From the IMG/VR virus record IMGVR_UViG_3300037245_003639: a stretch of 64,000 nt of DNA; one strand, 5' to 3'. Positions 1,940 through 21,550 of the stretch are shown piece after piece (the first letter of the stretch is position 1; each line of letters starts with the position of its first letter). Source of the DNA: a virus. Both the position numbers and the translations under genes were made by a program. The notes beneath the pieces were generated by a model. The model was not told where the DNA came from. It ran no database searches and worked only from the letters and a program-made list of their open reading frames with translations.

Positions 1940-2015
1940 TGGGTCCAGTAGGATTTGAACCTACGACCTTCAAGTTATGAGCTTGTTGCTCTGAGCCAGA
2001 CTGAGCTATGGACCC
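1940..2015 (-). tRNA. tRNA-Met(CAT)
   Basis: Reverse complement folds as a cloverleaf GGGTCCA...TGGACCC+A with GGTTCAAATCC T-loop and anticodon loop CTCATAA. Confidence 0.75.
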
Positions 2016-2269
2016 GTTTTCTTCTTTCGGTGCGGTGGAGCAGTCTTATTGTAAACAACTTCCAACCAACCCAACACTTTATCATTCACTAGCGGAACGG
2101 CAACTATCACCCAAAGTAACAGACAGGCGAGACCGCCACAAATCTGCAACACGGCGGTCGATTGCTCGGTGTCGAACAACCAACTGCTAGCGACCGGCGA
2201 CCATATTGGCGAGAGTACGTTCAAGACTCCAGTTATCAGAAGCAGAATTCCAAACCAACCGCCACGCAT
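2006..2269 (-). CDS. small membrane protein
   Basis: 87 aa with two hydrophobic helices; 3' end overlaps the tRNA by about 10 nt. Confidence 0.3.
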   Translation of the reverse strand: MRGGWFGILLLITGVLNVLSPIWSPVASSWLFDTEQSTAVLQICGGLACLLLWVIVAVPLVNDKVLGWLEVVYNKTAPPHRKKKTGP

Positions 2270-2272
2270 GCC

Positions 2273-2512
2273 TTATACCTCTATCTGAAATTCGCTTGGA
2301 TCATAGCATCCTATGGTTCCATCTTCATGTTGAACCTCATAGCAAAGGCCATGTGAATCGTGATGCATGATTACAGTGCCTTTTACTCCCCAGCGACGTT
2401 TGGGCAATGCATCTTCAGTCCAATCGTCAATCTCAGGATTAGCCTCAGTAGTGACAACTTTAGTTCCACGACTAATGGGTGGCCAACTCATTGTTCTTAT
2501 ACTCCTACCCAT
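2273..2512 (-). CDS. hypothetical protein
   Basis: 79-aa ORF. Confidence 0.3.
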   Translation of the reverse strand: MGRSIRTMSWPPISRGTKVVTTEANPEIDDWTEDALPKRRWGVKGTVIMHHDSHGLCYEVQHEDGTIGCYDPSEFQIEV

Positions 2513-2841
2513 TCGTGGTTAGCTAAGAACTCCCGTTCTGTTGGTGTAACTGAGCCCTTAGCAATCATTTTCTTAATTTGCTCAGCATTCTCATCCCACT
2601 GGGCTTTGCGATCCTTGACAATCTGTCGCGCGGCGGCCAGCAATTCTTGATAATGCTTTTTGTCCGCCTTTAACTCATCTCCACGAGCAAAAGCATCCGG
2701 CACCATGACTTCGTGCCTGCGGCAAAAAACGAAGAAATTGTGCATCTCACCGCTAGCAAACGACACCACAAGTTCAAGGTCTTTTTCGCGAGTCCAGATC
2801 ATACTGCTGTTCCTCCGCCAGTTTAGCTCCGTCTTGGCCAA
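2497..2841 (-). CDS. hypothetical protein
   Basis: 114-aa ORF. Confidence 0.4.
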   Translation of the reverse strand: MAKTELNWRRNSSMIWTREKDLELVVSFASGEMHNFFVFCRRHEVMVPDAFARGDELKADKKHYQELLAAARQIVKDRKAQWDENAEQIKKMIAKGSVTPTEREFLANHEWVGV

Positions 2842-3164
2842 CTCTTGGCAATCTCATCAACTGTTTCTTGTAGTTTGGACATGCAGTCATCGAGAACATC
2901 CGGATATTCACAAATGTCTACGCGGATGCCGTTGACCACATGAGTGCGAATCGTGTCCTCACGCATATCGCCACAAACGCAACATTCACCACGCATGTAG
3001 TCTCGTATCTTAGTCCCAGCCGTCCTGGGCTTTCGCTTGCTGTTGTCGCCATGTCGCTTCGTCTTGTTCTTGTCTTTTGTCATTCCATTCCTCTGCCAGT
3101 TTCTTAGTGATCCTTGCAACCGCAATAAAGTAACTCCGGCCACTGATGCCCTGCTTCGCCGCAA
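2823..3164 (-). CDS. hypothetical Cys-containing protein (start uncertain)
   Basis: 113-aa ORF overlapping 3010..3228; an internal start near 2996 would remove the overlap. Confidence 0.3.
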   Translation of the reverse strand: MRRSRASVAGVTLLRLQGSLRNWQRNGMTKDKNKTKRHGDNSKRKPRTAGTKIRDYMRGECCVCGDMREDTIRTHVVNGIRVDICEYPDVLDDCMSKLQETVDEIAKSWPRRS

Positions 3165-3228
3165 TGGCCCGAGCTTGTTTCCTGCATTTCTCTATCTCCG
3201 CTTGAGATAGATAGGGATACTTACTCAT
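3010..3228 (-). CDS. hypothetical protein
   Basis: 72-aa ORF in a different frame from its neighbour. Confidence 0.3.
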   Translation of the reverse strand: MSKYPYLSQAEIEKCRKQARAIAAKQGISGRSYFIAVARITKKLAEEWNDKRQEQDEATWRQQQAKAQDGWD

Positions 3229-3944
3229 CGATCACTCGCTGGCGGTTTCCTGAAACTCCACTCGTTGAAACCTTTAGATTCCGCCTTAAGTTTATCAGGA
3301 ATCACCGGCATTGGCTTCTGCGGAATAGCCAAATTCCCAACAAACATTGCGATCTCTTGGAACGCTGTATATGTGTCGAAAACCCTAAAAAAACCATACT
3401 TATTCAGCATGGAGTTCCATTCTATCACCCCAGTGTATCCACGGCCATGTTTATAAGCCACAAAAATGGGGCAGCGTTTTTCCATGAACATTTGTTCATA
3501 TTGAGTTTGCTGCTTAGCACATTCCCGAAAGAAATCCTCGTAATGCCGTCGAGTGCCACTACCCCACGGGAAGTGTAATCGACGCTGATATCGACCTTTC
3601 TCGTGGTAAGCCCTCAATTCTCGGGGTCGTAGATGTTGCTCCATAAAAGCATCGACTTCGGCCAAACTGAAACATTTGATGCTTAGTGTAGGTTTGGGGT
3701 CATGTTCAATCAACGGTGGGTACAATTCAATCAACGGGTAGATCTTACCGCAGAATCCGATAATATAAGCATCACCCTGATCGCCGTGACAGTTTGGAAA
3801 CGGCCATTCTTTTCGGTCGAGATGTTGTTCTTCTGGCTTGCGAACATAGACCACCGTGCGATCTTGGCCACACCCCATGATGCAGTCGTAATAGTCTTTC
3901 TGGTCCGCGATGATTCTCATGGTCCTGCCCTCATTTAACCTCAA
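3225..3944 (-). CDS. hypothetical protein
   Basis: 239-aa ORF. Confidence 0.5.
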   Translation of the reverse strand: MRLNEGRTMRIIADQKDYYDCIMGCGQDRTVVYVRKPEEQHLDRKEWPFPNCHGDQGDAYIIGFCGKIYPLIELYPPLIEHDPKPTLSIKCFSLAEVDAFMEQHLRPRELRAYHEKGRYQRRLHFPWGSGTRRHYEDFFRECAKQQTQYEQMFMEKRCPIFVAYKHGRGYTGVIEWNSMLNKYGFFRVFDTYTAFQEIAMFVGNLAIPQKPMPVIPDKLKAESKGFNEWSFRKPPASDR

Positions 3945-4266
3945 CCACCTTCGCGGTTTTTTCGCGGAGATTGAACTCGACCGTCAACAACTCTCCGTAT
4001 TCAATCCACTTCGACAAGTCCTCTTGCATGATCGTTGTCATCTCATTATCATCTATTTGGCTTCGCTCAAATCCCATATCTTCTACAGCGCGTCGAATGC
4101 AGTCAGGCGTCTTGAATGATACTCGAATGGTGTCAGGAATGTCAAGGTTAATCTCGTTGCCGTCGTCGTCCATGATAAGAACTTTCATTTTACTAACCAC
4201 CATAGTGCCAAACCAAGGTTTTCCAGACAAAGAACCCCAATTGCGATTATTGCCGCCTTCTTCCAT
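3931..4266 (-). CDS. hypothetical protein
   Basis: 111-aa ORF. Confidence 0.4.
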   Translation of the reverse strand: MEEGGNNRNWGSLSGKPWFGTMVVSKMKVLIMDDDGNEINLDIPDTIRVSFKTPDCIRRAVEDMGFERSQIDDNEMTTIMQEDLSKWIEYGELLTVEFNLREKTAKVVEVK

Positions 4267-4333
4267 CTTTCGCGGCAGTGAAAGAGTTCCCTATGTCTAC
4301 TATTGGGAACCAAAAGTTCTTCTTCATCGGGCA

Positions 4334-4576
4334 TCAAAAGACTCCCAGCCGTCCTGTTCGCATTTCGCCTGGTGTGAACTTCCTTATGCTGCATTCAAAG
4401 CAGCGTTGTTTTATTATCTCGCTCTCACCTCCCTGATAGCATTTGAAACATACCTTGCGACCACACCAAATGCATTTGAACAGACTGCCGTCTGGTGGAT
4501 ATCCGCATTTTTCGCATTTCTTTCGCCTCATCGTCATTCTCGGCTTATTTCGACACAGCAGAATATATGATTCCAC
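4334..4576 (-). CDS. zinc-ribbon protein
   Basis: 80 aa with several CxxC pairs. Confidence 0.4.
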   Translation of the reverse strand: MESYILLCRNKPRMTMRRKKCEKCGYPPDGSLFKCIWCGRKVCFKCYQGGESEIIKQRCFECSIRKFTPGEMRTGRLGVF

Positions 4577-4705
4577 CTATTGAGAGTGTTTTCTTCACGA
4601 GTATCATATCATCTTTGGCAAACATCTCGACCAGCCATACTTCAGCTTGCTCTCGCTGTTCATTGCTCACGCAATACATCGTGAATGTCAATATCTGCTT
4701 CTTCA

Positions 4706-4930
4706 TTAGTCAATGCAACTCCGAGCCAATTCGGCCCACCTTTGCCATTCAGACAAAGTAACTTGCTCTCTCTTTGGCTCGCTCTCTACATATGTCCCTT
4801 CGGGTTCGGGAAATATTCGCTCATAAAAGACGATGTGGCTGGTTACATCCAAAACTTTTCTTCGATCCAGATGCCATGTGCCACTCTCAGTGTTGTAACG
4901 TTCGTACACTTGACCGATTTCAGGTTTCAT
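4706..4930 (-). CDS. hypothetical protein
   Basis: Start trimmed to MKPEIGQ so the N-terminus does not run into the adjacent tRNA. Confidence 0.4.
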   Translation of the reverse strand: MKPEIGQVYERYNTESGTWHLDRRKVLDVTSHIVFYERIFPEPEGTYVESEPKREQVTLSEWQRWAELARSCID

Positions 4931-4932
4931 AA

Positions 4933-5006
4933 TGGGAGTGGTGGGATTCGAACCCACGAATCTTCGGCTTATGAGACCGCTGCCTTAACCACTTAGCTAC
5001 ACTCCC
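4933..5006 (-). tRNA. tRNA-Met(CAT)
   Basis: rc is GGGAGTGTAGCTAAGTGG...GGGTTCGAATCCCACCACTCCCA with anticodon loop CTCATAA. Confidence 0.7.
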
Positions 5007-5010
5007 AAAA

Positions 5011-5082
5011 TGGGCGAGGGAGGGATTCGAACCCTCACGAAGAGATTTTCAGCCTCTTGTGCTGCCATTACACCACCTGCCC
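5011..5082 (-). tRNA. tRNA-Phe(GAA)-like, irregular acceptor/T junction
   Basis: rc is GGGCAGGTGGTGTAATGGCAGCAC...CTGAAAA...GAGGGTTCGAATCCCTC; there is one extra nucleotide before the 3' acceptor strand. Confidence 0.5.
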
Positions 5083-5090
5083 TTTCAAAA

Positions 5091-5162
5091 TGGGACGACC
5101 GGGAGTTGAACCCGGAATGCACAGATTTTCAGTCTGCTGCCCTACCGTTAGGCCACCGTCCC
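5091..5162 (-). tRNA. tRNA-Phe(GAA)
   Basis: rc is GGGACGG...GCAGA CTGAAAA TCTGT...CCGGGTTCAACTCCCGGTCGTCCCA; clean cloverleaf. Confidence 0.7.
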
Positions 5163-5180
5163 CTTTTATTCAGTTTTCAA

Positions 5181-5254
5181 TGGGAGTAGAGGGAATCGAA
5201 CCCACGCGCTTTCGGGCAAGAACCGAATGCTCTACCTAGCTGAGCTATACTCTC
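5181..5254 (-). tRNA. tRNA-Lys(CTT), degenerate copy
   Basis: Anticodon stem TTCGG/CCGAA with loop TTCTTGC; one mismatch each in the acceptor and T stems. Confidence 0.5.
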
Positions 5255-5586
5255 GGAACAACCTTGCCTTCAGAACCTTCTCTAACCATGATGTTCTTGG
5301 GGGCTGCTTTAATTGGTTCTGGTGGCATGCCGTCCACCTGGGACTCGTCACTGTGAACCTGCAACCAGTCGTCGTTTTTGCCTTCCCGAAGTTCTGAACC
5401 AAATGATGACATTTCCTTCGGATCGCCTACTCTTAGGACCAAACAGTTCATCCCGTCCATTTTTGGAATCTCGACCACTGATACTCGGCCGATCTCGTGA
5501 AAATGTTCACCATCATGAATCACGACTGGCAAAATACCAAAAGATTCTGTTTTAGTCAAGCAATCTCGAAACTGTGTCGTATTCAT
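5245..5586 (-). CDS. hypothetical protein
   Basis: 113-aa ORF; 3' end abuts the tRNA. Confidence 0.4.
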   Translation of the reverse strand: MNTTQFRDCLTKTESFGILPVVIHDGEHFHEIGRVSVVEIPKMDGMNCLVLRVGDPKEMSSFGSELREGKNDDWLQVHSDESQVDGMPPEPIKAAPKNIMVREGSEGKVVPRV

Positions 5587-5627
5587 AGGAGTCGCCTTAT
5601 TCGTTTTTGCTGATTATTTTAGGCTAA

Positions 5628-5700
5628 TGAGGTCGCAGAGATTCGAACTCTGGTCCCGAGATTAAGAGTCTCGTGCATCTCCGACTATGCTTCGACCTCG
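5628..5700 (-). tRNA. tRNA-Lys(CTT)
   Basis: rc is GAGGTCGAAGCAT...CGAGA CTCTTAA TCTCG...CAGAGTTCGAATCTCTGCGACCTCA; all stems pair. Confidence 0.7.
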
Positions 5701-5730
5701 TTTGCTCTACCTAACTGAGCTACACTCCCA
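5701..5730 (-). pseudogene. tRNA 5' fragment (acceptor + D arm)
   Basis: rc GGGAGTGTAGCTCAGTTAGGTAGAGCA has no anticodon or T arm and resembles the 5' end of the tRNA-Met at 4933..5006. Confidence 0.45.
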
Positions 5731-5941
5731 AAACTTTTTCCAGACCAGCAACCATCTCTCTGTGGAATTCTAATCGATCTTCAACCTCTTTGCTGCTAAC
5801 CTCTGTTAGTTTAGTCTTGTTCTCCCATCCATGGGCAAGACCTCGCAAGTCCAGAAGAAAAGCACACCTGTCATTCTCTTCACTAATCGTGAAAAGGTCG
5901 ATTCCTTCTCCCAGGCAGCGAAATACCTTTAGTTTGCTCAT
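5720..5941 (-). CDS. hypothetical protein
   Basis: 73-aa ORF. Confidence 0.3.
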   Translation of the reverse strand: MSKLKVFRCLGEGIDLFTISEENDRCAFLLDLRGLAHGWENKTKLTEVSSKEVEDRLEFHREMVAGLEKVLGV

Positions 5942-6459
5942 GCAGGCATTCTTCCCAACAATTCAGCGAAGTTAGCCGAGGCACTCGATTCTGAATTAGC
6001 ATTCAAAGTCAAACGCCTTAGCGTGCTCTGTTTCACATTCGTCACCCTTAGACCGTTGCCGAGGAATAATTCAACCAGACGTTCTTTTTCTTCATAACGC
6101 CAATGCAACACAATGGCATAGTAACCATCGTCTGTCACCACTAAATCGCCGACTCGTATCATTTTTTTGGCATCGGCACTTATTCCGCGAGCCACGCTAA
6201 ACCATCTTTCTCTCATCTCTACCAACATCGCTATATTCAGCTCTACCGCGTTATCAGACACGACAGAATCTATACCGCAATGCGGACAAAGAGCCGTTGT
6301 TGGCTGCGGATCTTTTCTGCTCTTCCTGACGTATTGCTTTACATCCGTTGATGGAAAAATTCGTCCACAGTAAAAACATCCGCATTGTTCACTCTCGCCG
6401 ATCAGGGCCTTATTGTCTGACGAGATACTGTGAATCCGTTTTAGTTCTGTATCATTCAT
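5938..6459 (-). CDS. zinc-ribbon protein
   Basis: 173 aa with CGCFYCGR...CPHCG. Confidence 0.45.
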   Translation of the reverse strand: MNDTELKRIHSISSDNKALIGESEQCGCFYCGRIFPSTDVKQYVRKSRKDPQPTTALCPHCGIDSVVSDNAVELNIAMLVEMRERWFSVARGISADAKKMIRVGDLVVTDDGYYAIVLHWRYEEKERLVELFLGNGLRVTNVKQSTLRRLTLNANSESSASANFAELLGRMPA

Positions 6460-6467
6460 ATTTCACG

Positions 6468-6493
6468 TCAATCTGGGTGCGACAGGAATCGAA
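6468..6493 (-). repeat. tRNA 3' fragment, direct repeat of the 3' end of the tRNA at 6998..7068
   Basis: TGGGTGCGACAGGAATCGAACCCGCT versus TGGGTGCGACAAGAATCGAACTCGCT at 6998. Confidence 0.55.
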
Positions 6494-6983
6494 CCCGCTC
6501 TAATACCGAATCAACCGTCTGACTCAGTGAAGTATGGATCACAGAAGAACCAAATGGATGCTCAACGTAATCCTTTTTCCACAGAATATCCAGATAGTCG
6601 ATCCGGTAAGCATCGTCCGGTCTTCCGTATACTACCTTGCACCTTTCTCGGAGCCAGTAACCCAACTCAAAGTTGGTGGTCAATCCGATTAGCTCCCTGG
6701 TCCTCGGAACCCAAAACATAATACAGTCTGCAAGTTTGAGTCCAGCATATTCCCAAATCGGCAGATCAGTTCTGTCCTTATCGGATGCAGCACAGTCGGC
6801 GAACTCAGGCACGATTAAAGTACCTGCAAATCCTCGACTTCTGAATTTCTCGATTGCATCGAATCTCCAACTCGGCTGCAAATGCTGCTGGTTCCCACGA
6901 ACCGTTGGCCCTGCTAAAAAGACCACAGGGATATCGCTTCGTTCAAACTCTGACGACGGAGTTTCGTATCGAAAAACGTTCAT
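6468..6983 (-). CDS. nucleoside 2-deoxyribosyltransferase-like protein
   Basis: VVFLAGP...IVPEF motif pattern of the NDT/Rcl fold; the last 10 codons are encoded by a tRNA 3'-fragment-like sequence. Confidence 0.45.
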   Translation of the reverse strand: MNVFRYETPSSEFERSDIPVVFLAGPTVRGNQQHLQPSWRFDAIEKFRSRGFAGTLIVPEFADCAASDKDRTDLPIWEYAGLKLADCIMFWVPRTRELIGLTTNFELGYWLRERCKVVYGRPDDAYRIDYLDILWKKDYVEHPFGSSVIHTSLSQTVDSVLERVRFLSHPD

Positions 6984-6997
6984 ACGAAACTCATCAA

Positions 6998-7068
6998 TGG
7001 GTGCGACAAGAATCGAACTCGCTCAGAGAGATTAAAAGTCTCTTGTGCAGCCTTTACACCACGCACCC
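6998..7068 (-). tRNA. tRNA-Lys(TTT)
   Basis: rc is GGGTGCGTGGTGTAAAGGCTGCAC AGAGA CTTTTAA TCTCT...GAGTTCGATTCTTGTCGCACCCA. Confidence 0.65.
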
Positions 7069-7130
7069 TACATTCTGTAAGATGCGTCTGTTTATATCGT
7101 TGTCCAATCATTTCAACACCTCTTTCAAAA

Positions 7131-7203
7131 TAGGGACGGGGAGACTCGAACTCCCGACCAATCGGTTAAAAGCCGATTGCTCTACCAACTGAGCTACGTC
7201 CCT
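7131..7203 (-). tRNA. tRNA-Lys(TTT)
   Basis: rc is AGGGACGTAGCTCAGTTGGTAGAGC ATCGG CTTTTAA CCGAT...GGGAGTTCGAGTCTCCCCGTCCCTA. Confidence 0.7.
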
Positions 7204-7212
7204 AACGGTTCC

Positions 7213-7671: not shown

Positions 7672-8019
7672 TCACTTCGGCTCTGCTCCATACATCCGAA
7701 AATATTTGAACTTCCGTGGCCACTCGTATCTCGGACAAAATGCTATCGCAACCTCTTCGTTGCCATAGTTCCCTTCACGTATGACAACATGATCTTCGAG
7801 TTTCTTGGCAGCCTCGAAATCCTTGTCGCTTACGGCGCAGACCACTTTGAAAAAAGGGCCTAAAATCCAGTCCAACATCCAATCCTTATGTTGGAACTTG
7901 CGAAAACAAGCAATCGATGCATGAGCCACGTTGACGATGGCCACCCCGAGCGGAATAGTTTCCCGCACCAGGATATACATCTTCAGTTTATCGTCTCTTA
8001 TCAACTTAGCCATATTCAC
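7672..8019 (-). CDS. pth2: peptidyl-tRNA hydrolase, PTH2 family
   Basis: KMYILVRETIPLGVAIVNVAHASIACF, KVVCAVSDKDFEAAKKL and EEVAIAFCP match the PTH2 core (compare human PTRH2 [26 protein letters not shown]). Confidence 0.6.
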   Translation of the reverse strand: MNMAKLIRDDKLKMYILVRETIPLGVAIVNVAHASIACFRKFQHKDWMLDWILGPFFKVVCAVSDKDFEAAKKLEDHVVIREGNYGNEEVAIAFCPRYEWPRKFKYFRMYGAEPK

Positions 8020-8294
8020 ACTCTACTCGATATGGCTCTCGCTGTCAACAAAAATAGCCCCCAAGCCAGATTGTGGCTTGAGGGCCTTCGCAGTTTCGAC
8101 TTATCTAAATACCGCGAGCGTTCCTCAAGCCAAGCTGTGCTTGGTAAAGCGTATAAAGCTTTGTTTCTTGAGACAACGCATCGATTCATTCCTCTTCCCG
8201 CCCATATAGAGCGGGCAACCTGCATTACTACAGGGGAGTTGTACCGCATTATACGTCGAATGTCAAGGAATTCCTCTGAAATTTCTGATAATCT

Positions 8295-9323
8295 TTAGTC
8301 CAAGGATTCCAGGAATTCCAGATGGTCGTCAATGGATTCGGGTTTTATCCACATATCGTAATCAGATTTATCCTTCATCCACGGTTCTTCATCTTTTACA
8401 CCATGAATGAGTTCCCGAATCTCGTCTGTGAAATCCAGCCGAATATATTTTTGAACAGGATCGTAAGAAACAACTCTGAGAACCACTCCTTCTTTAATGC
8501 TGTTGAAGAAGGTGCCGGTAAACATGTGAGGAACTTTCTCTGAAATTTGAGCAAAGAACGGCCCAGGGAAAAACTTGATCGGTTTTTTCACTTTGACAAG
8601 CGGGAATCGTTCCTTGTGGGCCATAGTCCACGTTAGCATGCGATTCTCTCGTTCTCGATGTTTCTTTTCAAAGTCCAAAGCGGCTTTCTTCCATTCTGTC
8701 TTGCTTTGATTGCCGGTCATACGAGTGTGATAAGCCCCCAAGATGAAACGCATACGCTTCTTGGACATGTTTTTGGCCTGTTCGACAGAGATGGTATCAG
8801 CGAAACGTTGATTGAAAACTTCGGTCATGTCATCCCATTTTTCCATGAACATCAAAGCGTTATCTCGTTCAAACCGAAACCAGTTGCTCTCTCGTTCTGT
8901 TTCCGCAAGTTCTTGCTCAATCCAACTTTCATCACGAGGGTCAAAGCCAATTTTCTGAATGAGACTTTCTAAGTTGTCTTGGGATTGTTGTGCCATTTCT
9001 TTCAGCCTTTTGTCTTTGATCTTAAGGGGGACTTCGTATCCCAATTCATGAGCGACTTCCAGAGCCTTTAATTGCACAGAAATCAAATCATATTGGAAAC
9101 GTTGTAGATTCTCAGGAGAACGAATATCATCAGGCAGAATCCAAAAGCATTCCAGTCCTGATAGTTCATTGTCTTGACATTCGAAGATAGGTATGTTTAC
9201 TATTGTTTCCCCTATTGGGGTTCGTTCGTATCTTAGGAATGTTGCTTTATCTTCTGTGAATCCTATCTCGCTATTGTAAACTATCAAAACTTCTTGTTTT
9301 GGTTCAAGTTTTCGTCTACTCAT
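8295..9323 (-). CDS. hypothetical protein
   Basis: 342-aa ORF, charged with coiled-coil-like segments. Confidence 0.5.
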   Translation of the reverse strand: MSRRKLEPKQEVLIVYNSEIGFTEDKATFLRYERTPIGETIVNIPIFECQDNELSGLECFWILPDDIRSPENLQRFQYDLISVQLKALEVAHELGYEVPLKIKDKRLKEMAQQSQDNLESLIQKIGFDPRDESWIEQELAETERESNWFRFERDNALMFMEKWDDMTEVFNQRFADTISVEQAKNMSKKRMRFILGAYHTRMTGNQSKTEWKKAALDFEKKHRERENRMLTWTMAHKERFPLVKVKKPIKFFPGPFFAQISEKVPHMFTGTFFNSIKEGVVLRVVSYDPVQKYIRLDFTDEIRELIHGVKDEEPWMKDKSDYDMWIKPESIDDHLEFLESLD

Positions 9324-9791: not shown

Positions 9792-9977
9792 TTAATTGTC
9801 CTTATCAGTTTTTGGTTTGTTTTTCCTTTGTTTCGGTTTTTTGATGAAGTGCGTACATAAAGGGCATCTTGCAGATAGGTGCTTCTCTGGTTCCAGTGCA
9901 TCATAATAATCACATAGCTGATCTGGAACCACTTCAAGCTGGCGCAATTCACAATACCCTTTGGTTGGCGACGGCAT
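9792..9977 (-). CDS. small zinc-ribbon protein
   Basis: 61 aa with CELRQ...CPLC. Confidence 0.25.
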   Translation of the reverse strand: MPSPTKGYCELRQLEVVPDQLCDYYDALEPEKHLSARCPLCTHFIKKPKQRKNKPKTDKDN

Positions 9978-10065
9978 TTACTCCTCCTTCCTCTATTCAA
10001 CCAACTGCCCGTGGCATCCTGCTCTGGATCGAGTCAAAATATTTCCGAGAAAAAAGAAAGGAATT

Positions 10066-10090
10066 GCTTGACATCTCTCGTATAATGGCA
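10066..10090 (+). promoter_or_regulatory. compact promoter-like motif GCTTGACATCTCTCGTATAATGG
   Basis: TTGACA and TATAAT hexamers only 7 nt apart; a near-identical 24-mer recurs at 21194. Confidence 0.45.
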
Positions 10091-10091
10091 T

Positions 10092-10293
10092 ATCTTTCTC
10101 GTGTCTCGTCGCGGTGGCGGGATACATGGAGAAGTAACGATGCTTTTGAATTCGTCCCACAACTCGTCAGCGGTTCACATCGCAGACAACGTGCGCATTA
10201 GCGTAGCCGCTAATTCCACGTAAGGTTGCAGGGCGAAATAAGGATTTTCGAGCCCTGCAACCCTAATCGGGAAGCAGGGCTTTTTTATTGGCA
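10092..10293 (+). ncRNA. putative small RNA or tRNA-array leader (paralog A)
   Basis: About 200 nt without an ORF between the promoter motif and the terminator AGCCCTGCAACC..GCAGGGCTTTTTT (10251..10287), with internal TTGCAGGGC/GCCCTGCAA hairpins. Confidence 0.35.
10251..10290 (+). terminator. intrinsic terminator
   Basis: GC-rich stem GCCCTGC..GCAGGGC followed by TTTTTTATT. Confidence 0.55.
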
Positions 10294-10319
10294 GATCGAT
10301 GTCGTAAAAGCTAAAATCA

Positions 10320-10391
10320 GGGCGCGTAGTTTAGAGGAAGAATGCTTCGTTTACACCGAAGAGGTCGCTGGTTCGAATCCAGCCGTGCCCA
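10320..10391 (+). tRNA. tRNA-Val(TAC)
   Basis: GGGCGCG...CTTCG TTTACAC CGAAG...GCTGGTTCGAATCCAGCCGTGCCCA. Confidence 0.7.
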
Positions 10392-10563
10392 GTATATAGC
10401 CTTATCTAGCACGGATGTAAAAGAATGTGGAATTACCTGAATAGACTATCTGACATTGATGAAGGGCAAGCCTGGAGATTGTTGTGTGTGTTGTCGTTTG
10501 TCACAGGGATGGTCGCATGTAACTCTCTGTGGTTATTAGTCCTTTGATCCTGGGTGGGTTTTA

Positions 10564-10625
10564 GGGTGCGTGGCTCAGCTCGTGCTTGGCCGAAAAGATC
10601 GTGGGTTCGAATCCCACCTCGCCCA
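10564..10625 (+). pseudogene. truncated tRNA-like element (about 62 nt)
   Basis: Acceptor GGGTGCG/CTCGCCC and T arm GTGGGTTCGAATCCCAC are present, but only about 30 nt lie between them, so the D and anticodon arms are incomplete. Confidence 0.4.
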
Positions 10626-10636
10626 TTAGTGAAACA

Positions 10637-10849
10637 ATGAAACGCAGAATTGAAGTCCGAAAGAAACCTGATGGCAGTGTGGATGAAGTCCTGCTTTACA
10701 TCGATGACGAGTGCGTAATGCACCTGGAGTACATGGACGACAATAAGATTTGGATTGGTCTGTATGACGGCAGAGACTATCCCACTCACGTAAGAATGGG
10801 AAGCGCCAAGCCAATCCAGACTGTGGTTGAAGACGGAAACGAAGAATGA
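10637..10849 (+). CDS. hypothetical protein
   Basis: Start trimmed to MKRRIEV downstream of the tRNA-like element. Confidence 0.4.
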   Translation: MKRRIEVRKKPDGSVDEVLLYIDDECVMHLEYMDDNKIWIGLYDGRDYPTHVRMGSAKPIQTVVEDGNEE

Positions 10850-11043
10850 AAATCGGTGATACAGTTTACGTCTTGGCAAAGGAAGACGGAACGATACTTG
10901 GCGACGGTGATGGGTTGGTGATGTCCGAAGTCGAGTTGATTGTTAAAAATGAGCTTGCTCTTAATGATAAATATTTAGGAGCCCTCAATCAATGTGATAT
11001 GTCAGAAGTCACAGTGGAGACAGTGATACTGACAAAAGTTTGA
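10846..11043 (+). CDS. hypothetical protein
   Basis: 65 aa, coupled to the upstream gene through an ATGA overlap. Confidence 0.35.
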   Translation: MKIGDTVYVLAKEDGTILGDGDGLVMSEVELIVKNELALNDKYLGALNQCDMSEVTVETVILTKV

Positions 11044-11049
11044 TCTAGA

Positions 11050-11121
11050 TCCGAGGTAGCACAACGGTAGTGCGTCGCACTGTTAATGCGATGGTTGCTG
11101 GTTCGAATCCAGCCCTCGGAG
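11050..11121 (+). tRNA. tRNA-Asn(GTT)
   Basis: TCCGAGGTAGCACAACGGTAGTGC TCGCA CTGTTAA TGCGA...GCTGGTTCGAATCCAGCCCTCGGAG. Confidence 0.7.
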
Positions 11122-11135
11122 TTTGAGAGTCGATC

Positions 11136-11209
11136 TCATCGGTAGCTCAGTTGGCCAGAGCACTTGGCTGTTAACCAGGGTGTCGCGGGTTCGAATCCCG
11201 TCCGGTGAG
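11136..11209 (+). tRNA. tRNA-Asn(GTT), second copy
   Basis: TCATCGGTAGCTCAGTTGGCCAGAGC CTTGG CTGTTAA CCAGG...GCGGGTTCGAATCCCGTCCGGTGAG. Confidence 0.6.
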
Positions 11210-11355
11210 CTTCACCCGAAAGGGTGCGAAGAGATCTTTGATAACTTAAAAGCGACGTTTTGTTTTGGCTGCGGCAGACCACAACCAGAAGGTATAATGG
11301 ACTGCCAATGCGAAAATGACGAATAACGGAAGCGACCACCTATCGCTTCCGCTAA

Positions 11356-11429
11356 GGGCGTTTGGCTCAGTTGGTTAGAGCGCATCCTTCACACGGATGA
11401 GATCACAGGTTCAAATCCTGTAACGCCCA
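11356..11429 (+). tRNA. tRNA-Val(CAC)
   Basis: GGGCGTTTGGCTCAGTTGGTTAGAGC CATCC TTCACAC GGATG...ACAGGTTCAAATCCTGTAACGCCCA. Confidence 0.75.
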
Positions 11430-11431
11430 TT

Positions 11432-11653
11432 ATGAGAGATGCAATTGTCGAAATTCTGAAATCAGGCACGGGTTGCGGAGTAGAATTCGCTGCAATGCTG
11501 TTTGTTCATCAACTGGAAGATGGGCGGTTTCGGGTTGGTTGCGAGGGAGATCACGATGAGTGGATCTTTCATAATGCAGAAATGGCCGCTATCTGCTTCT
11601 TGAATAAAAGAAGAGAGAAAGGGCTGGGATTTGATTTTGAAACGGGCGCGTAG
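11432..11653 (+). CDS. hypothetical protein
   Basis: 73-aa ORF between tRNAs. Confidence 0.35.
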   Translation: MRDAIVEILKSGTGCGVEFAAMLFVHQLEDGRFRVGCEGDHDEWIFHNAEMAAICFLNKRREKGLGFDFETGA

Positions 11654-11717
11654 CGCAGTTGGTTAGCGCACTTCGGTGACATCGAAGGGGTCGTGAGTTC
11701 AAGTCTCACCGTGCCCA
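11644..11717 (+). tRNA. tRNA-Val(GAC)
   Basis: GGGCGCGTAGCGCAGTTGGTTAGCGC CTTCG GTGACAT CGAAG...GTGAGTTCAAGTCTCACCGTGCCCA. Confidence 0.75.
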
Positions 11718-11929
11718 TTACGACATACCTTCACGCTAGTTGCTATGCAGCAAGCCGGAGGCAGCGGTCCTGGCGGGTGAACCTAACCTGTTACTCTACC
11801 GTCAGGTAAGATTACATCATGGAGTAAGGGACTGGTAACAGAGACGCCTTATTATCATGGTGCCGCTATGAAAGTCGTAACTTTTGCCGAGTGGTCTTAC
11901 CCTGAGCCCGACAGACTGCTTGGCAATTT

Positions 11930-12003
11930 GGGAGCGTAGCTCAGTTGGTTAGAGCAATTCGCTGATAACGAATAGGTCAGTGGTTCGACTCCACTCGTTC
12001 CCA
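11930..12003 (+). tRNA. tRNA-Ile(GAT)
   Basis: GGGAGCGTAGCTCAGTTGGTTAGAGC ATTCG CTGATAA CGAAT...AGTGGTTCGACTCCACTCGTTCCCA. Confidence 0.75.
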
Positions 12004-12173
12004 TTTTATCTGCATTTTCCTTGACAAAAGAACGATGACCAACCTGGCTTGGCAACGAGTATTTGAGGAAATGCGGAAATGCGTTCTTACTTGTTGTCGA
12101 TGTCACAGAGAAATTGAGTACAGGATAATTCCCGCAAAGAAAGTCACAGCCGTTTATCGCGAAAGGCAGATCG

Positions 12174-12479
12174 ATGAAACTGATGGTTGAATTAGAAGGA
12201 ACGGGATTTCCTCCTCCTTCGTCATTTGATGGACTTGAATTTGAACAGCGCAACATAAAAGAAAAACGAGATGGAAAACCAGATGGAGGGTTTTCGTTTG
12301 TCGGTTATGTCGTAATTTCTCTCGGGAGCGCTGCAAGCGGTGTAATAGGCAATTACATCTTTGCCTGGTTGAGAAGTCCAGGAGCAAAAGTGATGAGTCT
12401 CAAAATTGAAGGGGAGCGCATAAACCCTGATGATGTAGACGCCATAGCTGACGCAGTAAAAAAGAGACTCACACAGTAA
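12174..12479 (+). CDS. hypothetical protein
   Basis: 101 aa with a Gly-rich hydrophobic segment; sits between a complete tRNA-Ile and a tRNA 3' fragment. Confidence 0.4.
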   Translation: MKLMVELEGTGFPPPSSFDGLEFEQRNIKEKRDGKPDGGFSFVGYVVISLGSAASGVIGNYIFAWLRSPGAKVMSLKIEGERINPDDVDAIADAVKKRLTQ

Positions 12480-12486
12480 GGATGAA

Positions 12487-12514
12487 GTCGTTGGTTCGAC
12501 TCCAACCGTTCCCA
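12487..12514 (+). repeat. tRNA 3' fragment (T arm + acceptor), paralogous to the tRNA-Ile 3' end
   Basis: GTCGTTGGTTCGACTCCAACCGTTCCCA versus GTCAGTGGTTCGACTCCACTCGTTCCCA in tRNA-Ile, with compensatory changes in the T stem. Confidence 0.5.
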
Positions 12515-12621
12515 TTCGAGGTGAAAGATGTCTGGATGGTGGTATGTAGGAATCGCGCTGGTGGTAGTTGTAGCCCTGGTAGCTAAATGGCTATGGAACC
12601 AAATCATCAGCATCGATTAGA

Positions 12622-12693
12622 TGGCTCGTGGTCTACTGGTTACGACGCTTCCCTGATAAGGAAGAGAAGATGGTTCAATTCCATTCGAGCCAA
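12622..12693 (+). tRNA. tRNA-Ile(GAT)-like, second copy
   Basis: TGGCTCG...CTTCC CTGATAA GGAAG...GATGGTTCAATTCCATTCGAGCCAA, with a T1-A72 first pair. Confidence 0.5.
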
Positions 12694-12695
12694 TT

Positions 12696-12857
12696 TGACA
12701 GGTGGTCTAATACCGCAAGGACATGTGAGACATGCAAAAGCAGCTATCTTGGATAGGTGTCCCGTAAAATTCTAGATCTCGATACGGGTGAATCGCTCTT
12801 GCTGGGGAAAGATGGCATCTACCGGTGTCGATGTGGGTTCGAATCCCATCCTGTCAT
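12696..12857 (+). pseudogene. tRNA-like with about 80-nt internal insertion (disrupted or intron-bearing)
   Basis: 5' TGACAGGTGGTCTAATACC... and 3' ...GTGGGTTCGAATCCCATCCTGTCA halves pair as an acceptor stem but lie about 160 nt apart. Confidence 0.25.
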
Positions 12858-12860
12858 TTT

Positions 12861-12933
12861 GGGGCAGTAGCTCAGTTGGGAGAGCGCCGTCTTCGCAAGG
12901 CGGAGGTTGCGGGTTCGAATCCCGTCTGCTCCA
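12861..12933 (+). tRNA. tRNA-Ala(CGC)
   Basis: GGGGCAGTAGCTCAGTTGGGAGAGC CCGTC TTCGCAA GGCGG...GCGGGTTCGAATCCCGTCTGCTCCA, with the G3:U70 Ala identity pair. Confidence 0.75.
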
Positions 12934-12935
12934 TT

Positions 12936-13100
12936 GGGTCGGTGGCTTAATTGGTAGAGCGTGCCGTGCAGAAAGGCAAGTCGGTCATAGATGCCTAAGC
13001 CCAGGGTTAAAAGTGTATCTTAGGTGTACCCGACATGACTGGAGAACAGTCTTTAGGCAGACCTGTGGCAAGAGTATGGGTTCGAATCCCGTCCGATCCA
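12936..13100 (+). tRNA. tRNA-Ala-like with about 90-nt insertion (putative intron)
   Basis: Acceptor GGGTCGG/CCGATCC with G3:U70, D arm TGGCTTAATTGGTAGAGC and T arm ATGGGTTCGAATCCCGT are all present, but the anticodon region is interrupted by about 90 extra nt. Confidence 0.35.
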
Positions 13101-13104
13101 TTAG

Positions 13105-13311
13105 GTGAATGAAATGGTTGTATATTGCGATTGTCCGTGCCATAAACCAGGAGCGACAATACTTCACTTTGATGCCTGCTGTAGTCTTTGTCCAAAATGT
13201 GGCAAGGGTATTGTTCGTGGTTTCAAGGAACATTTTGGAACCTGCACGGGTGAGTTGCTTAACAAAGTGAAACGAAAGAGAAGGCAAAAACCAGAACCGC
13301 CTTGGGTATAA
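13105..13311 (+). CDS. Cys-rich small protein
   Basis: 68 aa with CDCPCH...CSLCPKCG. Confidence 0.4.
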   Translation: MNEMVVYCDCPCHKPGATILHFDACCSLCPKCGKGIVRGFKEHFGTCTGELLNKVKRKRRQKPEPPWV

Positions 13312-13315
13312 ATTT

Positions 13316-13388
<73 letters not shown>

Positions 13389-13390
13389 TT

Positions 13391-13672
13391 ATGAAAGAGA
13401 AAACCCTGACAGAAGTATGGACGGAATTAGACCACTGGATTTACATGCATCAAGATGGCGGCATAGTATATGACAATCACGCTCAGAATTCGTTTGAGCA
13501 AGCCGGTGGAGATTTCGATACGCTGATACTGGCTATTGAAGATCATATTGTGCAAGATGACGATGACAAGGAAGTTATAGATTGGCCGTCTGTCGAAACA
13601 ACGTATGAGCATATGGTTCAACAACCTGAGTGGACCGACAAGGATTGGAAATTCAATCCTGATTGGTTTTGA
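13391..13672 (+). CDS. hypothetical acidic protein
   Basis: Start trimmed to MKEKTLTEVW after the tRNA. Confidence 0.4.
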   Translation: MKEKTLTEVWTELDHWIYMHQDGGIVYDNHAQNSFEQAGGDFDTLILAIEDHIVQDDDDKEVIDWPSVETTYEHMVQQPEWTDKDWKFNPDWF

Positions 13673-13676
13673 GTTT

Positions 13677-13748
13677 GGGGCAGTAGCTCAATGGGAGAGC
13701 ATCGCGTTTGCAACGCGGAGGTTGAGGGTTCGAATCCCTTCTGCTCCA
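13677..13748 (+). tRNA. tRNA-Ala(TGC)
   Basis: GGGGCAGTAGCTCAATGGGAGAGC TCGCG TTTGCAA CGCGG...GAGGGTTCGAATCCCTTCTGCTCCA, with G3:U70. Confidence 0.75.
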
Positions 13749-13761
13749 TTAGGAGATTGAG

Positions 13762-13995
13762 ATGATTTTAGGACGCAATCCTAATCCTGGCCGCGTTTTA
13801 ATGGACATCGCTGATGATGCTGAATTGCGAGGTTTCCTTGATGCTGGGCGGATTCGACATGCTCAGCGAACGGGCAACTGGCCTGAGCATTTGAAACCTG
13901 GTCGGCTTATCATGCGGCTGCCAGAAGATGTTCGTAATATTCTAAAACAACTGCGGTCGAGTGACTTGACAAAGGCTCGGTATCCGTTACACTGA
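13762..13995 (+). CDS. hypothetical protein
   Basis: 77-aa ORF. Confidence 0.35.
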   Translation: MILGRNPNPGRVLMDIADDAELRGFLDAGRIRHAQRTGNWPEHLKPGRLIMRLPEDVRNILKQLRSSDLTKARYPLH

Positions 13996-14003
13996 AATAG
14001 ATT

Positions 14004-14094
14004 GGATAGGCTGGATTCCCATTGGTGCGGGACACTTGATTGCTAATCAAGGGATCGTTTCGGCGGTTTAAGAGTTCGAATCTCTTCCTATCCG
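14004..14094 (+). tRNA. tRNA-Ser(GCT)
   Basis: Class II tRNA: GGATAGG...CTTGA TTGCTAA TCAAG, long variable arm, AAGAGTTCGAATCTCTTCCTATCCG. Confidence 0.65.
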
Positions 14095-14096
14095 TT

Positions 14097-14702
14097 ATGG
14101 TGATAATCGAGGTCCATAGTGCTCAGTCGATATTGACGGCTTCGCCGCAAGTCCCGCACGTCATCATTTCGATATCAGACAAGCCCGAGAGTTTGCCTGA
14201 TATCCAACAGAATGAGCACTGCAAGGGACTGTTACAACTCTGCTTTCACGATGTAGACAAAGACTTTCGGAGATTCAAAACGATTTCCGATGAGCAGGCT
14301 CAGGAAGCAGTGGATTTCATTCAGTCTCATATCGGGATTGACCTAATCATCTGCCAATGCGATGCTGGGATCAGCCGTAGTTCTGGAATGGCGGCAGCGA
14401 TAGCCAAGGCATTCAACGGTGATGATGAGCAATTTTTCAGACGATACATGCCAAACACAGCAGTGTATCGAAAAGTATTGGTAAAGCTTCAGGAGATTAC
14501 AATGTCTGGGTGTAAGCACAATTGGATCGTTTACTCCACGGCGGTTGTAGATGCCACAATCCTTGTAGAATGCAGCAAATGCAAGGAACGTGGTGGAATC
14601 CTCCGAAAGGATTCTACCGAGCAGGATTGGAAAGATGCATTCACTGCACCTTCCGATCCGTATCCACTGAGGGAAGATCTTTATCCCTTTGTGCAAACTT
14701 AG
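14097..14702 (+). CDS. dual-specificity/tyrosine phosphatase-like protein with C-terminal zinc ribbon
   Basis: CX5R active-site signature CDAGISRS (HC-x-AG-xx-RS pattern); C-terminal CKHNW...CSKCKERGG. Confidence 0.45.
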   Translation: MVIIEVHSAQSILTASPQVPHVIISISDKPESLPDIQQNEHCKGLLQLCFHDVDKDFRRFKTISDEQAQEAVDFIQSHIGIDLIICQCDAGISRSSGMAAAIAKAFNGDDEQFFRRYMPNTAVYRKVLVKLQEITMSGCKHNWIVYSTAVVDATILVECSKCKERGGILRKDSTEQDWKDAFTAPSDPYPLREDLYPFVQT

Positions 14703-14791
14703 GATGGACTAGCCGACAGTTGGCGACGGCACCGGATTTGAAATTCGGCGAGGCTTCACCGCCCTTGTGGGTTCGACCCCCACTCCATCCG
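14702..14791 (+). tRNA. tRNA-Ser(TGA)
   Basis: GGATGGA...CCGGA TTTGAAA TTCGG, long variable arm, GTGGGTTCGACCCCCACTCCATCCG. Confidence 0.65.
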
Positions 14792-14825
14792 TTACAAAAG
14801 GCCGAAGCATTTGGATGGATTTGTT

Positions 14826-15269
14826 ATGATAAATGAACTACTAATCGCATTGGGCCGCATCGCAGAGCTTCCAGACAACTGTGGCGGAGGTTGCGGACAA
14901 GGTTGTTGTGGTTGCATCGGTAGAGCAATCGCAATTGCTCAAATTGAACTGGATAAACCCGATAGAGAAGTTGAAGCTCCACCTCAACCTGTTTGGAAAT
15001 GTCTAATTTGCGAACAGGTAGTTGAAGTAGAACATCCAGGTGATGACTCTAAAGCTTGCTGGCCCAACGTTGTTGGTGGTCATGTCGAAGTGACTTTTGG
15101 CTATGGTAGCATTTTTGACCAGTGTCAAAACAGCGGTCGGGAGACTTACCAAGGATGCATCTGTGATGAATGTGTCAAAAAGAAAGGTAAATTACTCAGG
15201 CGAGTCAGAGGACATCGTTCTGCTCGATGGGAAATTTTGCCAAATGATTTGGACGAATGCAGAGGATAG
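14826..15269 (+). CDS. Cys-rich hypothetical protein
   Basis: Start trimmed to MINELL; contains CGGGCGQGCCGC and further cysteines. Confidence 0.4.
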   Translation: MINELLIALGRIAELPDNCGGGCGQGCCGCIGRAIAIAQIELDKPDREVEAPPQPVWKCLICEQVVEVEHPGDDSKACWPNVVGGHVEVTFGYGSIFDQCQNSGRETYQGCICDECVKKKGKLLRRVRGHRSARWEILPNDLDECRG

Positions 15270-15352
15270 ACTGTCCTGATTGGTGCCAGGTGCCTGATTG
15301 GAAATCAGGTGGGGGCGCAAGCCTCCTGTCGGTTCGAATCCGACTCTATCCG
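15264..15352 (+). tRNA. tRNA-Ser(GGA)
   Basis: GGATAGA...CCTGA TTGGAAA TCAGG, long variable arm, TCGGTTCGAATCCGACTCTATCCG. Confidence 0.65.
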
Positions 15353-15367
15353 TTTGGGGAGAAAAAT

Positions 15368-15532
15368 ATGCATCATAAACGTAAGCGGGCTCGGAATTCG
15401 CGAGCCGGATGTAAGATGTGTAAATTTTGGAAAGTGAATGGATTTCGAACTGGAAGAACAGAAGGTGAAAAACATTCCGACCATGTGAGACGAAAAACAG
15501 CGAATCAAGAAGTCAAAAACGAAACGTCGTAA
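15368..15532 (+). CDS. small basic protein
   Basis: MHHKRKRARNSRAGCKMCKF..., Lys/Arg-rich. Confidence 0.3.
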   Translation: MHHKRKRARNSRAGCKMCKFWKVNGFRTGRTEGEKHSDHVRRKTANQEVKNETS

Positions 15533-15537
15533 TCCTT

Positions 15538-15624
15538 GGAGAGTAGGGGGCATTGGTGCCCAACGGGTCTCGAAAGCCCGCCCAGACCATTACGCGTCTG
15601 ACCGTTCGATTCGGTTACTCTCCG
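15538..15624 (+). tRNA. tRNA-Ser(CGA)
   Basis: GGAGAGT...CGGGT CTCGAAA GCCCG, long variable arm, CCGTTCGATTCGGTTACTCTCCG. Confidence 0.6.
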
Positions 15625-15661
15625 TTAACTAACATTTCTACTTGCATCTCCCATCAACATT

Positions 15662-21184: not shown

Positions 21185-21193
21185 CAGGAATCG

Positions 21194-21217
21194 CTTGACA
21201 TCTGTCGTATAATGTCG
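21194..21217 (+). promoter_or_regulatory. compact promoter-like motif GCTTGACATCTGTCGTATAATG (copy 2)
   Basis: Near-identical to the motif at 10066. Confidence 0.45.
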
Positions 21218-21420: not shown

Positions 21421-21425
21421 TTTAT

Positions 21426-21496: not shown

Positions 21497-21550
21497 TTTC
21501 ACCCGAAAGGGTGATTTCAACCCGTGATAAAACGGGCTGAAACAGTGAAA

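Follow-up and report, generated by a model that had tools for sequence, protein, structure and literature searches.

The stretch of DNA analysed here, hereafter the window, comprises 64,000 nucleotides (nt) of the IMG/VR virus record IMGVR_UViG_3300037245_003639, with positions counted from its first letter. Its genes, which include a major-vault-protein-like open reading frame (ORF), a glutamine synthetase, and an aminotransferase, indicate by their sequences that it derives from a huge phage, and its transfer RNA (tRNA) genes, 44 according to ARAGORN and 43 according to Rfam, are gathered in three arrays. Associated with these arrays are three paralogous cassettes, of which A and B lie on the plus strand and C on the minus strand (8266-8047). 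All three are built to a shared plan, in which a promoter is followed by a Shine-Dalgarno site, an ORF of 18-32 codons, and an intrinsic terminator. The active element of the cassettes appears, from the sequence, to be this short ORF, a translated leader with codons that match the tRNAs encoded downstream. The components in the window are listed below.

10068-10096, plus strand: predicted promoter of cassette A, with TTGACA at 10068-10073, TATAAT within the spacer at 10081-10086, and a -10-like TATCTT at 10091-10096 (17-nt spacing)
10101-10125, plus strand: 5' stem-loop of leader A, upstream of the Shine-Dalgarno site, from the minimum-free-energy fold
10128-10131, plus strand: Shine-Dalgarno site GGAG of cassette A, 8 nt ahead of the leader ATG (10140)
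10140-10223, plus strand: leader ORF A, MLLNSSHNSSAVHIADNVRISVAANST followed by a stop, with an ATG start
10252-10286, plus strand: intrinsic terminator A, with the hairpin at 10252-10280, region 3 GCCCTGCAACC, region 4 GCAGGGC, and then a T6 tract
10320-15625, plus strand: tRNA array A, 13 tRNAs (Val, two Asn, two Val, two Ile, three Ala, three Ser) with small ORFs between them
21195-21223, plus strand: predicted promoter of cassette B, with TTGACA at 21195-21200, TATAAT within the spacer at 21208-21213, and a -10-like TATCCT at 21218-21223
21247-21252, plus strand: Shine-Dalgarno site AGAGGA of cassette B, upstream of the GTG start codon (21260)
21260-21358, plus strand: leader ORF B, (M)ISMTHTTRQPQPGTERPGTRMPRGQEPRERR followed by a stop, with a GTG start
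21389-21424, plus strand: intrinsic terminator B, with the hairpin at 21389-21419, a stem of 14 base pairs (bp) plus a T-tract, and tRNA-Gln directly after
21425-27594, plus strand: tRNA array B, 23 tRNAs (Gln, Pro, Glu, Thr, Gly, His, Arg, Met)
8238-8266, minus strand: predicted promoter of cassette C, with TTGACA at 8266-8261, TATAAT at 8253-8248, and a second hexamer TACAAC at 8243-8238
8125-8181, minus strand: leader ORF C, MRCLKKQSFIRFTKHSLA followed by a stop, with the codons Lys AAG/AAA, Phe TTT, and Ile ATA
8047-8086, minus strand: intrinsic terminator C, with the hairpin at 8086-8056, a 13-bp stem, and then ATTTTTGTT
1940-7204, minus strand: tRNA array C, two Lys-TTT, two Lys-CTT, two Phe, and two Met/CAT, with ORFs between them

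Cassettes A and B align well at both ends, which hold a common promoter box (AGGAAT.GCTTGACATCT.TCGTATAATG.C.TATC.TTCT) and a common tail (AGGATTT.C.AGCCCTGCAAC...GCAGGGCTTTTTTATTG). Their middles have diverged and retain no meaningful nucleotide similarity, a difference that reflects the distinct codon sets they encode and not a lack of relationship between the cassettes. An earlier note on this DNA had described paralogous promoter-sRNA-terminator cassettes ahead of the tRNA arrays, marked by TTGACA and TATAAT only 7 nt apart; the motif is indeed present upstream of two arrays, at 10066-10087 and 21193-21214, terminators and arrays follow it, and the units are paralogous and dedicated to the arrays. 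The suggestion in the same note that the units are leaders for the tRNA polycistrons comes close to the mark. However, the intervals of about 200 nt that it took to be free of ORFs hold Shine-Dalgarno sites and the ORFs at 10140-10223 and 21260-21358, and the first tRNA, which it placed 25-30 nt past the terminator, lies 33 nt past the T-tract in cassette A and 0-1 nt past it in cassette B, where it is tRNA-Gln and where the gap is too small for another promoter.

With cognate codons assigned by standard wobble rules, 18 of the 26 codons of leader A are read by the tRNAs of array A, and each of the 11 anticodon species of that array is sampled. Leader B fits its array more closely still, with 29/31 codons read and 21/21 anticodon species sampled. 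The match is specific to one frame, the two other reading frames holding 5-14 cognate codons, and none of 200,000 random in-frame windows taken from long ORFs reaches the counts of leaders A and B. A blind scan of the 64-kilobase (kb) window, which considered all combinations of a Shine-Dalgarno site, an ORF, and a terminator upstream of tRNAs, yields leaders A and B only (binomial P = 8.6e-6 and 1.5e-10, respectively).

Relatives of these cassettes were reached through the ORF of 342 amino acids that lies between cassettes A and C (8295-9323, minus strand), which has 57 homologues of 39-100% identity on contigs of up to 568 kb. Eleven related loci were fetched around such homologues, the last three serving as held-out tests, and the comparative set consists of 23 cassettes from 12 huge-phage genomes. 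A near-identical copy of the window's phage, L021, reaches 1.7 kb past the window start and adds no tRNAs. The same three cassette types occur in most of the related loci, ahead of arrays that differ in content between genomes. In our reading of the upstream sequences, a Shine-Dalgarno site precedes the leader in 21/23 cassettes, and the other two look leaderless. Hairpins of differing sequence, read by eye, occupy the position of the 5' stem-loop of leader A in most relatives, and this element may act in transcript stability or polymerase pausing.

Across the 23 cassettes, the leaders sample 168 of the 176 anticodon species of their own arrays (mean per cassette 94%), compared with 53% when leaders and arrays are re-paired at random, and the maximum in 50,000 permutations is 78%, so that none reaches the observed value. 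The signal is also found within types: for type A alone (n = 10) the observed value is attained by no permutation (P < 2e-5), and for type B alone (n = 5) the true pairing ranks best of all 120 permutations, while the arrays of type C are all alike and therefore give no within-type signal. Each amino acid with an array tRNA accounts for 10.6% of leader residues, against 3.2% for the others (P = 3e-26). When synonymous codons are redrawn at a fixed peptide, 144 +/- 4.3 species are sampled against the 168 observed; thus, the choice of codons, beyond that of amino acids, fits the isoacceptors present.

Judged from these genomes, the codon content of the leader follows tRNA gains and losses in the array. 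Array A of L023 additionally holds His-GTG and Ser-GCT, which accounts for the CAC and AGC codons that are non-cognate in leader A of the window. L025 has an Ala tRNA in array B and none in array A, and its leader B contains five Ala codons and its leader A none. In L024, L026, L027, and L028, array A has gained Pro/Gln/Thr/Glu/Gly tRNAs, and the same codons are present in leader A. The held-out locus L104, with Arg-CCT, Arg-TCT, and Gly-GCC tRNAs, has a leader with AGG, AGA, and GGN codons, and L030 (43% identity, low GC), with Pro, Gln, Ser, Ser, Glu, and Thr tRNAs, has the leader MFFVSFTTSQSQSSEQPSEPTQIV.

The second line of evidence concerns the RNA itself, in which four regions can be distinguished: region 1 lies in the early leader ORF, region 2 is the 5' arm of a predicted antiterminator, and regions 3 and 4 are the 5' and 3' arms of the terminator. 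In addition to the terminator arms given above, the following segments were assigned in the window.

10150-10165, plus strand: region 1 of cassette A, codons 4-9, ATTCGTCCCACAACTC, a candidate partner of region 2
10223-10235, plus strand: region 2 of cassette A, AGGTTGCAGGGCG, starting at the last base of the TAA stop (z = -5.1)
21271-21292, plus strand: region 1 of cassette B, codons 4-11, GACCCATACAACC..., pairing with region 2 (P = 0.027)
21352-21370, plus strand: region 2 of cassette B, GCGCTGAGTTGTAAGGGTA, with the TGA stop inside (z = -6.9)
8116-8133, minus strand: region 2 of cassette C, TTGGCTTGAGGAACGCTC, overlapping the TGA stop, with its partner CCTCAAGCC in the terminator (P = 0.01)

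Every one of the 19 cassettes analysed in this respect combines a GC-rich hairpin (3:4, -10 to -24 kcal/mol) and a T-tract with a 2:3 duplex, which is stronger than shuffled controls in 19/19 cassettes. Region 2, complementary to the 5' arm of the terminator, begins at -20 to +5 nt relative to the first stop-codon base. The 2:3 pairing joins TAA-GGTTGCAGGGC with GCCCTGCAACC in cassette A, GCGCTGAGTTGTAAGGG with CCCTGCAACTCAGCG in cassette B, and GGCTTGAGG with CCTCAAGCC in cassette C. When 11 tails of types A and B are aligned, pairing reaches 90.8% in the 2:3 helix, where four pairs have changed on both sides, and 90.9% in the 3:4 helix, where three have, compared with 29-51% for slid controls. 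Type C cassettes reach the same arrangement from unrelated sequences, CTTGAGG/CCTCAAG or CTTGGGT/ACCCAAG. Region 1 usually spans codons 4-10, and in cassettes of types A and B an ACAAC motif is conserved within it. In L028 a four-way compensatory change runs through regions 1-4, with AUGAC/GUCGU/GCGAC/GUCGU replacing ACAAC/GUUGU/GCAAC/GUUGU; the conserved motif and this covariation support a candidate 1:2 helix. In type A/B cassettes, the loop that joins regions 2 and 3 carries a conserved AGGATTT box, which looks like a Shine-Dalgarno site (10244-10250 and 21380-21386 in the window; also in L023).

Fold modelling with ribosomes placed on the transcript is consistent with a switch between these helices. 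When a 30-nt ribosome footprint is masked in cassette A, stalls at codons 2-14 swap the terminator for the antiterminator, and the terminator returns once the ribosome sits on the stop codon; equilibrium folding works as a switch model for cassettes A and C. When the transcript is folded up to region 3 only, a treatment that cannot reproduce the untranslated state and in which automatic terminator detection failed for L103_A, the antiterminator is intact at 241 of 302 cognate-codon positions, whereas a ribosome on the stop codon or on one of the final 1-5 codons abolishes it.

Each cassette is most probably a ribosome-mediated (leader-peptide) transcription attenuator ahead of a phage tRNA array. 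From the sequences, we infer that the leader is translated and that read-through is regulated, and the direction of regulation, in which slow decoding leads to read-through, is taken from the analogy with the trp, his, leu, thr, and ilv attenuators. In this mechanism, a sigma-70-type promoter would start a leader RNA of roughly 200 nt. If all sampled codons were read fast, the ribosome would reach the stop codon and cover region 2, the terminator 3:4 would form, and transcription would end before the tRNAs. If any of the sampled aminoacyl-tRNAs were scarce, the ribosome would stall upstream and leave region 2 free to pair with region 3; no terminator would then form, and the polymerase would enter the array. 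The net effect would be a negative feedback on the supply of precisely those tRNAs that the array encodes, and an RNase P cut at the first tRNA would release the leader.

Several observations weigh against this interpretation. On the side of sensing, leader C is weak when taken alone (5/17 cognate codons, P about 0.05), although its Lys/Phe/Ile-ATA pattern recurs in 8 genomes; leader A holds codons for which its array has no tRNA (Leu, Asp, Arg, Thr); and the related genomes are not independent, so that the P values imply more independent events than there were. The 1:2 helix is significant in just 13/23 cassettes, and in the window it reaches P = 0.25 for A, P = 0.027 for B, and P < 0.003 for C. 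On the side of the controlled genes, array B carries internal promoter-like sites at 22384 and 24788, and its distal tRNAs may therefore not depend solely on the attenuator, and a second promoter plus about 900 nt of coding sequence separate cassette C from its first tRNA. Finally, the 14-bp terminator of cassette B persists in every full-length equilibrium fold, from which it follows that the switch there must be kinetic, and stalls at cognate codons about 1-5 from the stop would cover region 2 and thus favour termination.

These last two observations, the terminator retained in the folds of cassette B and the cognate codons that adjoin the stop, would also fit a leader that senses decoding but delivers a non-classical output, the more so as the direction of regulation comes from analogy. 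Such a leader might act through Rho-dependent termination, through the stability or processing of the transcript, or through a reversed logic, with read-through as the result of fast translation. Such an output is nevertheless unlikely in view of the canonical hairpin and T-tract of the 19 cassettes and of the mutually exclusive 2:3 helix with its compensatory changes. Moreover, stop codon and region 2 are arranged as in classical attenuators, and a ribosome halted at the stop sits 23-44 nt ahead of the terminator hairpin and therefore cannot block the hairpin directly.

It is very improbable that the cassettes consist of a constitutive promoter and a leaky terminator, with an ORF that encodes a functional small peptide or senses nothing and a codon match that reflects the general co-adaptation of phage codons and tRNAs. 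Since phage tRNAs are generally thought to fit phage codon usage, some enrichment would be expected anywhere, and the background ORFs of the window are already 27% (array A) and 38% (array B) cognate; the leaders, at 69% and 94%, lie far over this background. A general co-adaptation also leaves unexplained that leader A mismatches array B and leader B mismatches array A, since swapping the pairs leaves only 4/26 and 2/31 cognate codons, and that the leader peptide drifts yet stays in its codon set: every change between the window and L023 (N to I, V to A, I to V, A to S) falls within the amino-acid set of the array. The tracking of tRNA gain and loss by the leader and the consistent position of the stop codon on the antiterminator arm stand against it as well.

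That the cassettes are non-coding small-RNA genes, as the earlier note had proposed, or mere processed 5' leaders, with the transcript as the product and the short ORFs incidental, is scarcely credible: an own promoter, a strong terminator, and many hairpins would suit such genes, and the terminated leader would be a discrete RNA of roughly 190 nt that could have a second role, but the middle nucleotide sequence is unconserved between the paralogues, the reading frame, Shine-Dalgarno spacing, and codon set are conserved, the codon match is confined to one frame, and no Rfam family is matched.

Searches beyond the related loci returned no further examples. Neither a megablast search with positions 9900-12000 of the window nor a tblastn search with the 342-amino-acid ORF gave a match in the GenBank phage collection, a protein-based IMG/VR search gave no match, and two IMG/VR scans with the promoter motif (20 and 75 loci) contained no cassette of this kind. 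No such leader came out of the blind scan for the first 50 kb of Xanthomonas phage XacN1, where 28 tRNAs are located, or for the other unrelated tRNA-bearing loci examined; thus, the design may be specific to this clade. We consider it reasonably likely that the attenuators form a tRNA homeostat, by which this clade of huge phages gates each array with a codon-sampler leader that opens only when decoding by any one isoacceptor becomes limiting. Further cassette types, for arrays of Leu, Asp, Cys, Tyr, and Trp tRNAs, would be expected in other parts of the genome, which spans roughly 400 kb.

The cassettes resemble the enterobacterial leaders trpL, hisL, leuL, thrL, ilvL/ivbL, and pheL in their succession of promoter, Shine-Dalgarno site, short ORF rich in regulatory codons, and intrinsic terminator, as well as in an antiterminator that draws on the 5' terminator arm, in a stop codon located at region 2 or beside it, and in the presence of region 1 further upstream. 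Simultaneous sensing of several amino acids is likewise known from the thr and ilv leaders. Unlike the enterobacterial leaders, which belong to the host and control biosynthetic enzymes, the phage cassettes are phage-encoded and would govern tRNA genes, and instead of the run of one codon found in the classical leaders their codons cover as many as 21 anticodon species and at least 8 amino acids, each represented roughly one to a few times and distributed over the entire ORF. In Rfam, only tRNA passes the gathering score in the window, and in permissive scans of the three leaders the only leader match is Trp_leader (RF00513), at 12.4 bits against a cut-off of 41 (E = 8.5). The Rfam comparison proposed in the earlier note thus yields no family beyond tRNA, and the phage cassettes show no sequence or covariance-model similarity to the Rfam amino-acid operon leaders.

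Attenuation of a component of translation by the decoding of cognate codons in a leader peptide is known from pheST of E. coli, with its pheM leader; it differs from the phage cassettes in that a host gene for an aminoacyl-tRNA synthetase is controlled and one amino acid is sensed. T-box riboswitches are likewise leader RNAs in which a terminator/antiterminator switch reports tRNA charging, but they bind uncharged tRNA directly through a specifier codon, without translation, whereas the phage cassettes have a Shine-Dalgarno site and an ORF; the Rfam scans gave no T-box match in the cassettes even at E <= 10. The L-array (trn operon) of Anabaena sp. PCC 7120 is a horizontally mobile tRNA array that normally remains silent and is induced by impaired translation; it is reportedly regulated by promoter repeats, and no leader peptide or attenuator has been described for it (PMC8421152). 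It thus shares with the phage arrays, as here interpreted, the property of an inducible tRNA array and differs from them in its described control. No report of a leader peptide or attenuator ahead of tRNA arrays or phage tRNA genes was found in the literature, with most subscription journals outside the search. For the E. coli tRNA-Phe genes pheU and pheV, leader-like features may have been discussed in earlier studies.

The promoter box is itself a distinctive element. The motif made up of GCTTGACATCT, C or G, and TCGTATAATG, in which TTGACA and TATAAT are separated by 7 nt, is found at 10066-10087 and 21193-21214, with a 3-mismatch copy on the minus strand at 8266-8248; it has 3 matches in the window against 0.02 expected by chance, and the looser pattern TTGACA-N4-8-TATAAT has 4 against 0.04. 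The earlier note had judged the spacing of the hexamers incompatible with a normal sigma-70 promoter, a view that overlooked TTGACA-17-TATCTT in cassette A and TTGACA-17-TATCCT in cassette B, each of which matches the sigma-70 type at 10/12 positions in a consensus scan. The layout of the cassette A promoter recurs in 16 cassettes of relatives, where the second hexamer reads TATACT, TATAGT, TATATT, TATCAT, and similar. In L029_A and L103_A, the leader ATG stands exactly 7 nt past TATAGT without a Shine-Dalgarno site, as in a leaderless messenger RNA; for this reason, the second hexamer, at 17-nt spacing, is probably the working -10. The conserved TATAAT within the spacer is possibly an operator, or else a second, overlapping -10.

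A double -10 layout as in cassette B is also seen in GCTTGACATATATAGTATAATGTCGTATCAT, which occurs in an AT-rich, unrelated phage group (IMG/VR loci L051, L059, L078, L090, and L101; for instance L051 at 6337), where it stands before an ordinary protein gene. The agreement exceeds the bases required by the search pattern, and the layout may represent a wider promoter type. Further sites of this kind, together with the first gene past cassette C, are located in the window as follows.

38067: promoter-like site, TTGACA-N5-TATAAT plus TATGGT at 17 nt, followed by an HNH_3 endonuclease gene at 38129-38467
8020-8048, minus strand: second promoter-like site past terminator C, TTGACA-17-TAGAGT
22384-22412 and 24788-24816: strong internal promoter-like sites of array B, which precede ordinary small ORFs with good Shine-Dalgarno sites
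7672-8013, minus strand: PTH2-like peptidyl-tRNA hydrolase gene, the first gene past cassette C (E = 6e-5, 23.6 bits against a cut-off of 23)

The site at 38067 corresponds to the third copy that the earlier note had placed near 38066. It is a real site ahead of an HNH_3 endonuclease gene, as described, but it has only the promoter hexamers in common with the cassettes and, having neither a leader nor a terminator, is not one of them; the true third paralogue is the minus-strand cassette C (promoter 8266-8238, terminator 8086-8056). The sites at 22384 and 24788 were rejected as further attenuators, ordinary small ORFs following them, and on account of such sites the arrays can be regarded as mosaics of tRNAs and small genes. 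A match to TTGGCA-18-TAAAAT between terminator A and tRNA-Val (10288-10317) was likewise rejected as a working promoter, as its start would fall inside the tRNA, and is probably due to chance.

Translation-related genes cluster near the arrays in the window (7672-8013, minus strand) and in L025, L027, L029, L103, L024, L028, and L105. Among them are the PTH2-like peptidyl-tRNA hydrolase, RF-1/PCRF, ribosome recycling factor, fragments of aminoacyl-tRNA synthetases, CsrA, a peptide deformylase, and an L12-like ORF. Some of the arrays hold unusual elements. In L025 (8246-8140, minus strand), a tRNA-like 5' half (GGGGCGTGTGGCTCAGTTGGT) stands directly past the terminator of cassette A, next to an HNH-like coding sequence (KEIDKCEVLCKNCHAKLHYKG) and then tRNA-Val, an arrangement that may represent a tRNA gene split by the insertion of a homing endonuclease or by an intron. 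Odd tRNA calls were obtained in L028 (5042-5111), L105 (7791-7874), and L103 (1876-1946), and comprise one tRNA with a 2-nt anticodon and the A34 tRNAs Ser-AGA and Thr-AGT. In L027, a TnpB/Cas12f-like ORF (7735-9033; OrfB_IS605, Cas12f1-like_TNB) lies between cassette A and the conserved 342-amino-acid gene. Elsewhere in the window, an ORF of 876 amino acids (30573-33203, minus strand) has the shoulder and repeat domains of the Major Vault Protein (E = 1e-24), which is unusual in a phage.

To our knowledge, the control of phage tRNA genes is poorly understood, and it is still debated why phages carry tRNAs at all. If the cassettes act as proposed, they would provide direct genomic evidence that phage tRNAs are supplied on demand to sustain translation, rather than constitutively. 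They would also extend leader-peptide attenuation to tRNAs as the regulated genes and add a new leader design, in which many codons are sampled about once each instead of one codon in a run. The system is compact, and a 200-nt cassette placed on a reporter should respond to the depletion of any of up to 21 tRNA species; such cassettes could find use as natural multi-codon sensors of tRNA availability, and the pairing of leader and array could serve as a search rule that predicts which tRNAs share one transcription unit in uncultivated phage genomes. For the phages themselves, a homeostat of this kind would couple tRNA supply directly to decoding demand and could sense and counter the loss of host tRNAs through host shut-off, starvation, or tRNA-cleaving defence nucleases.

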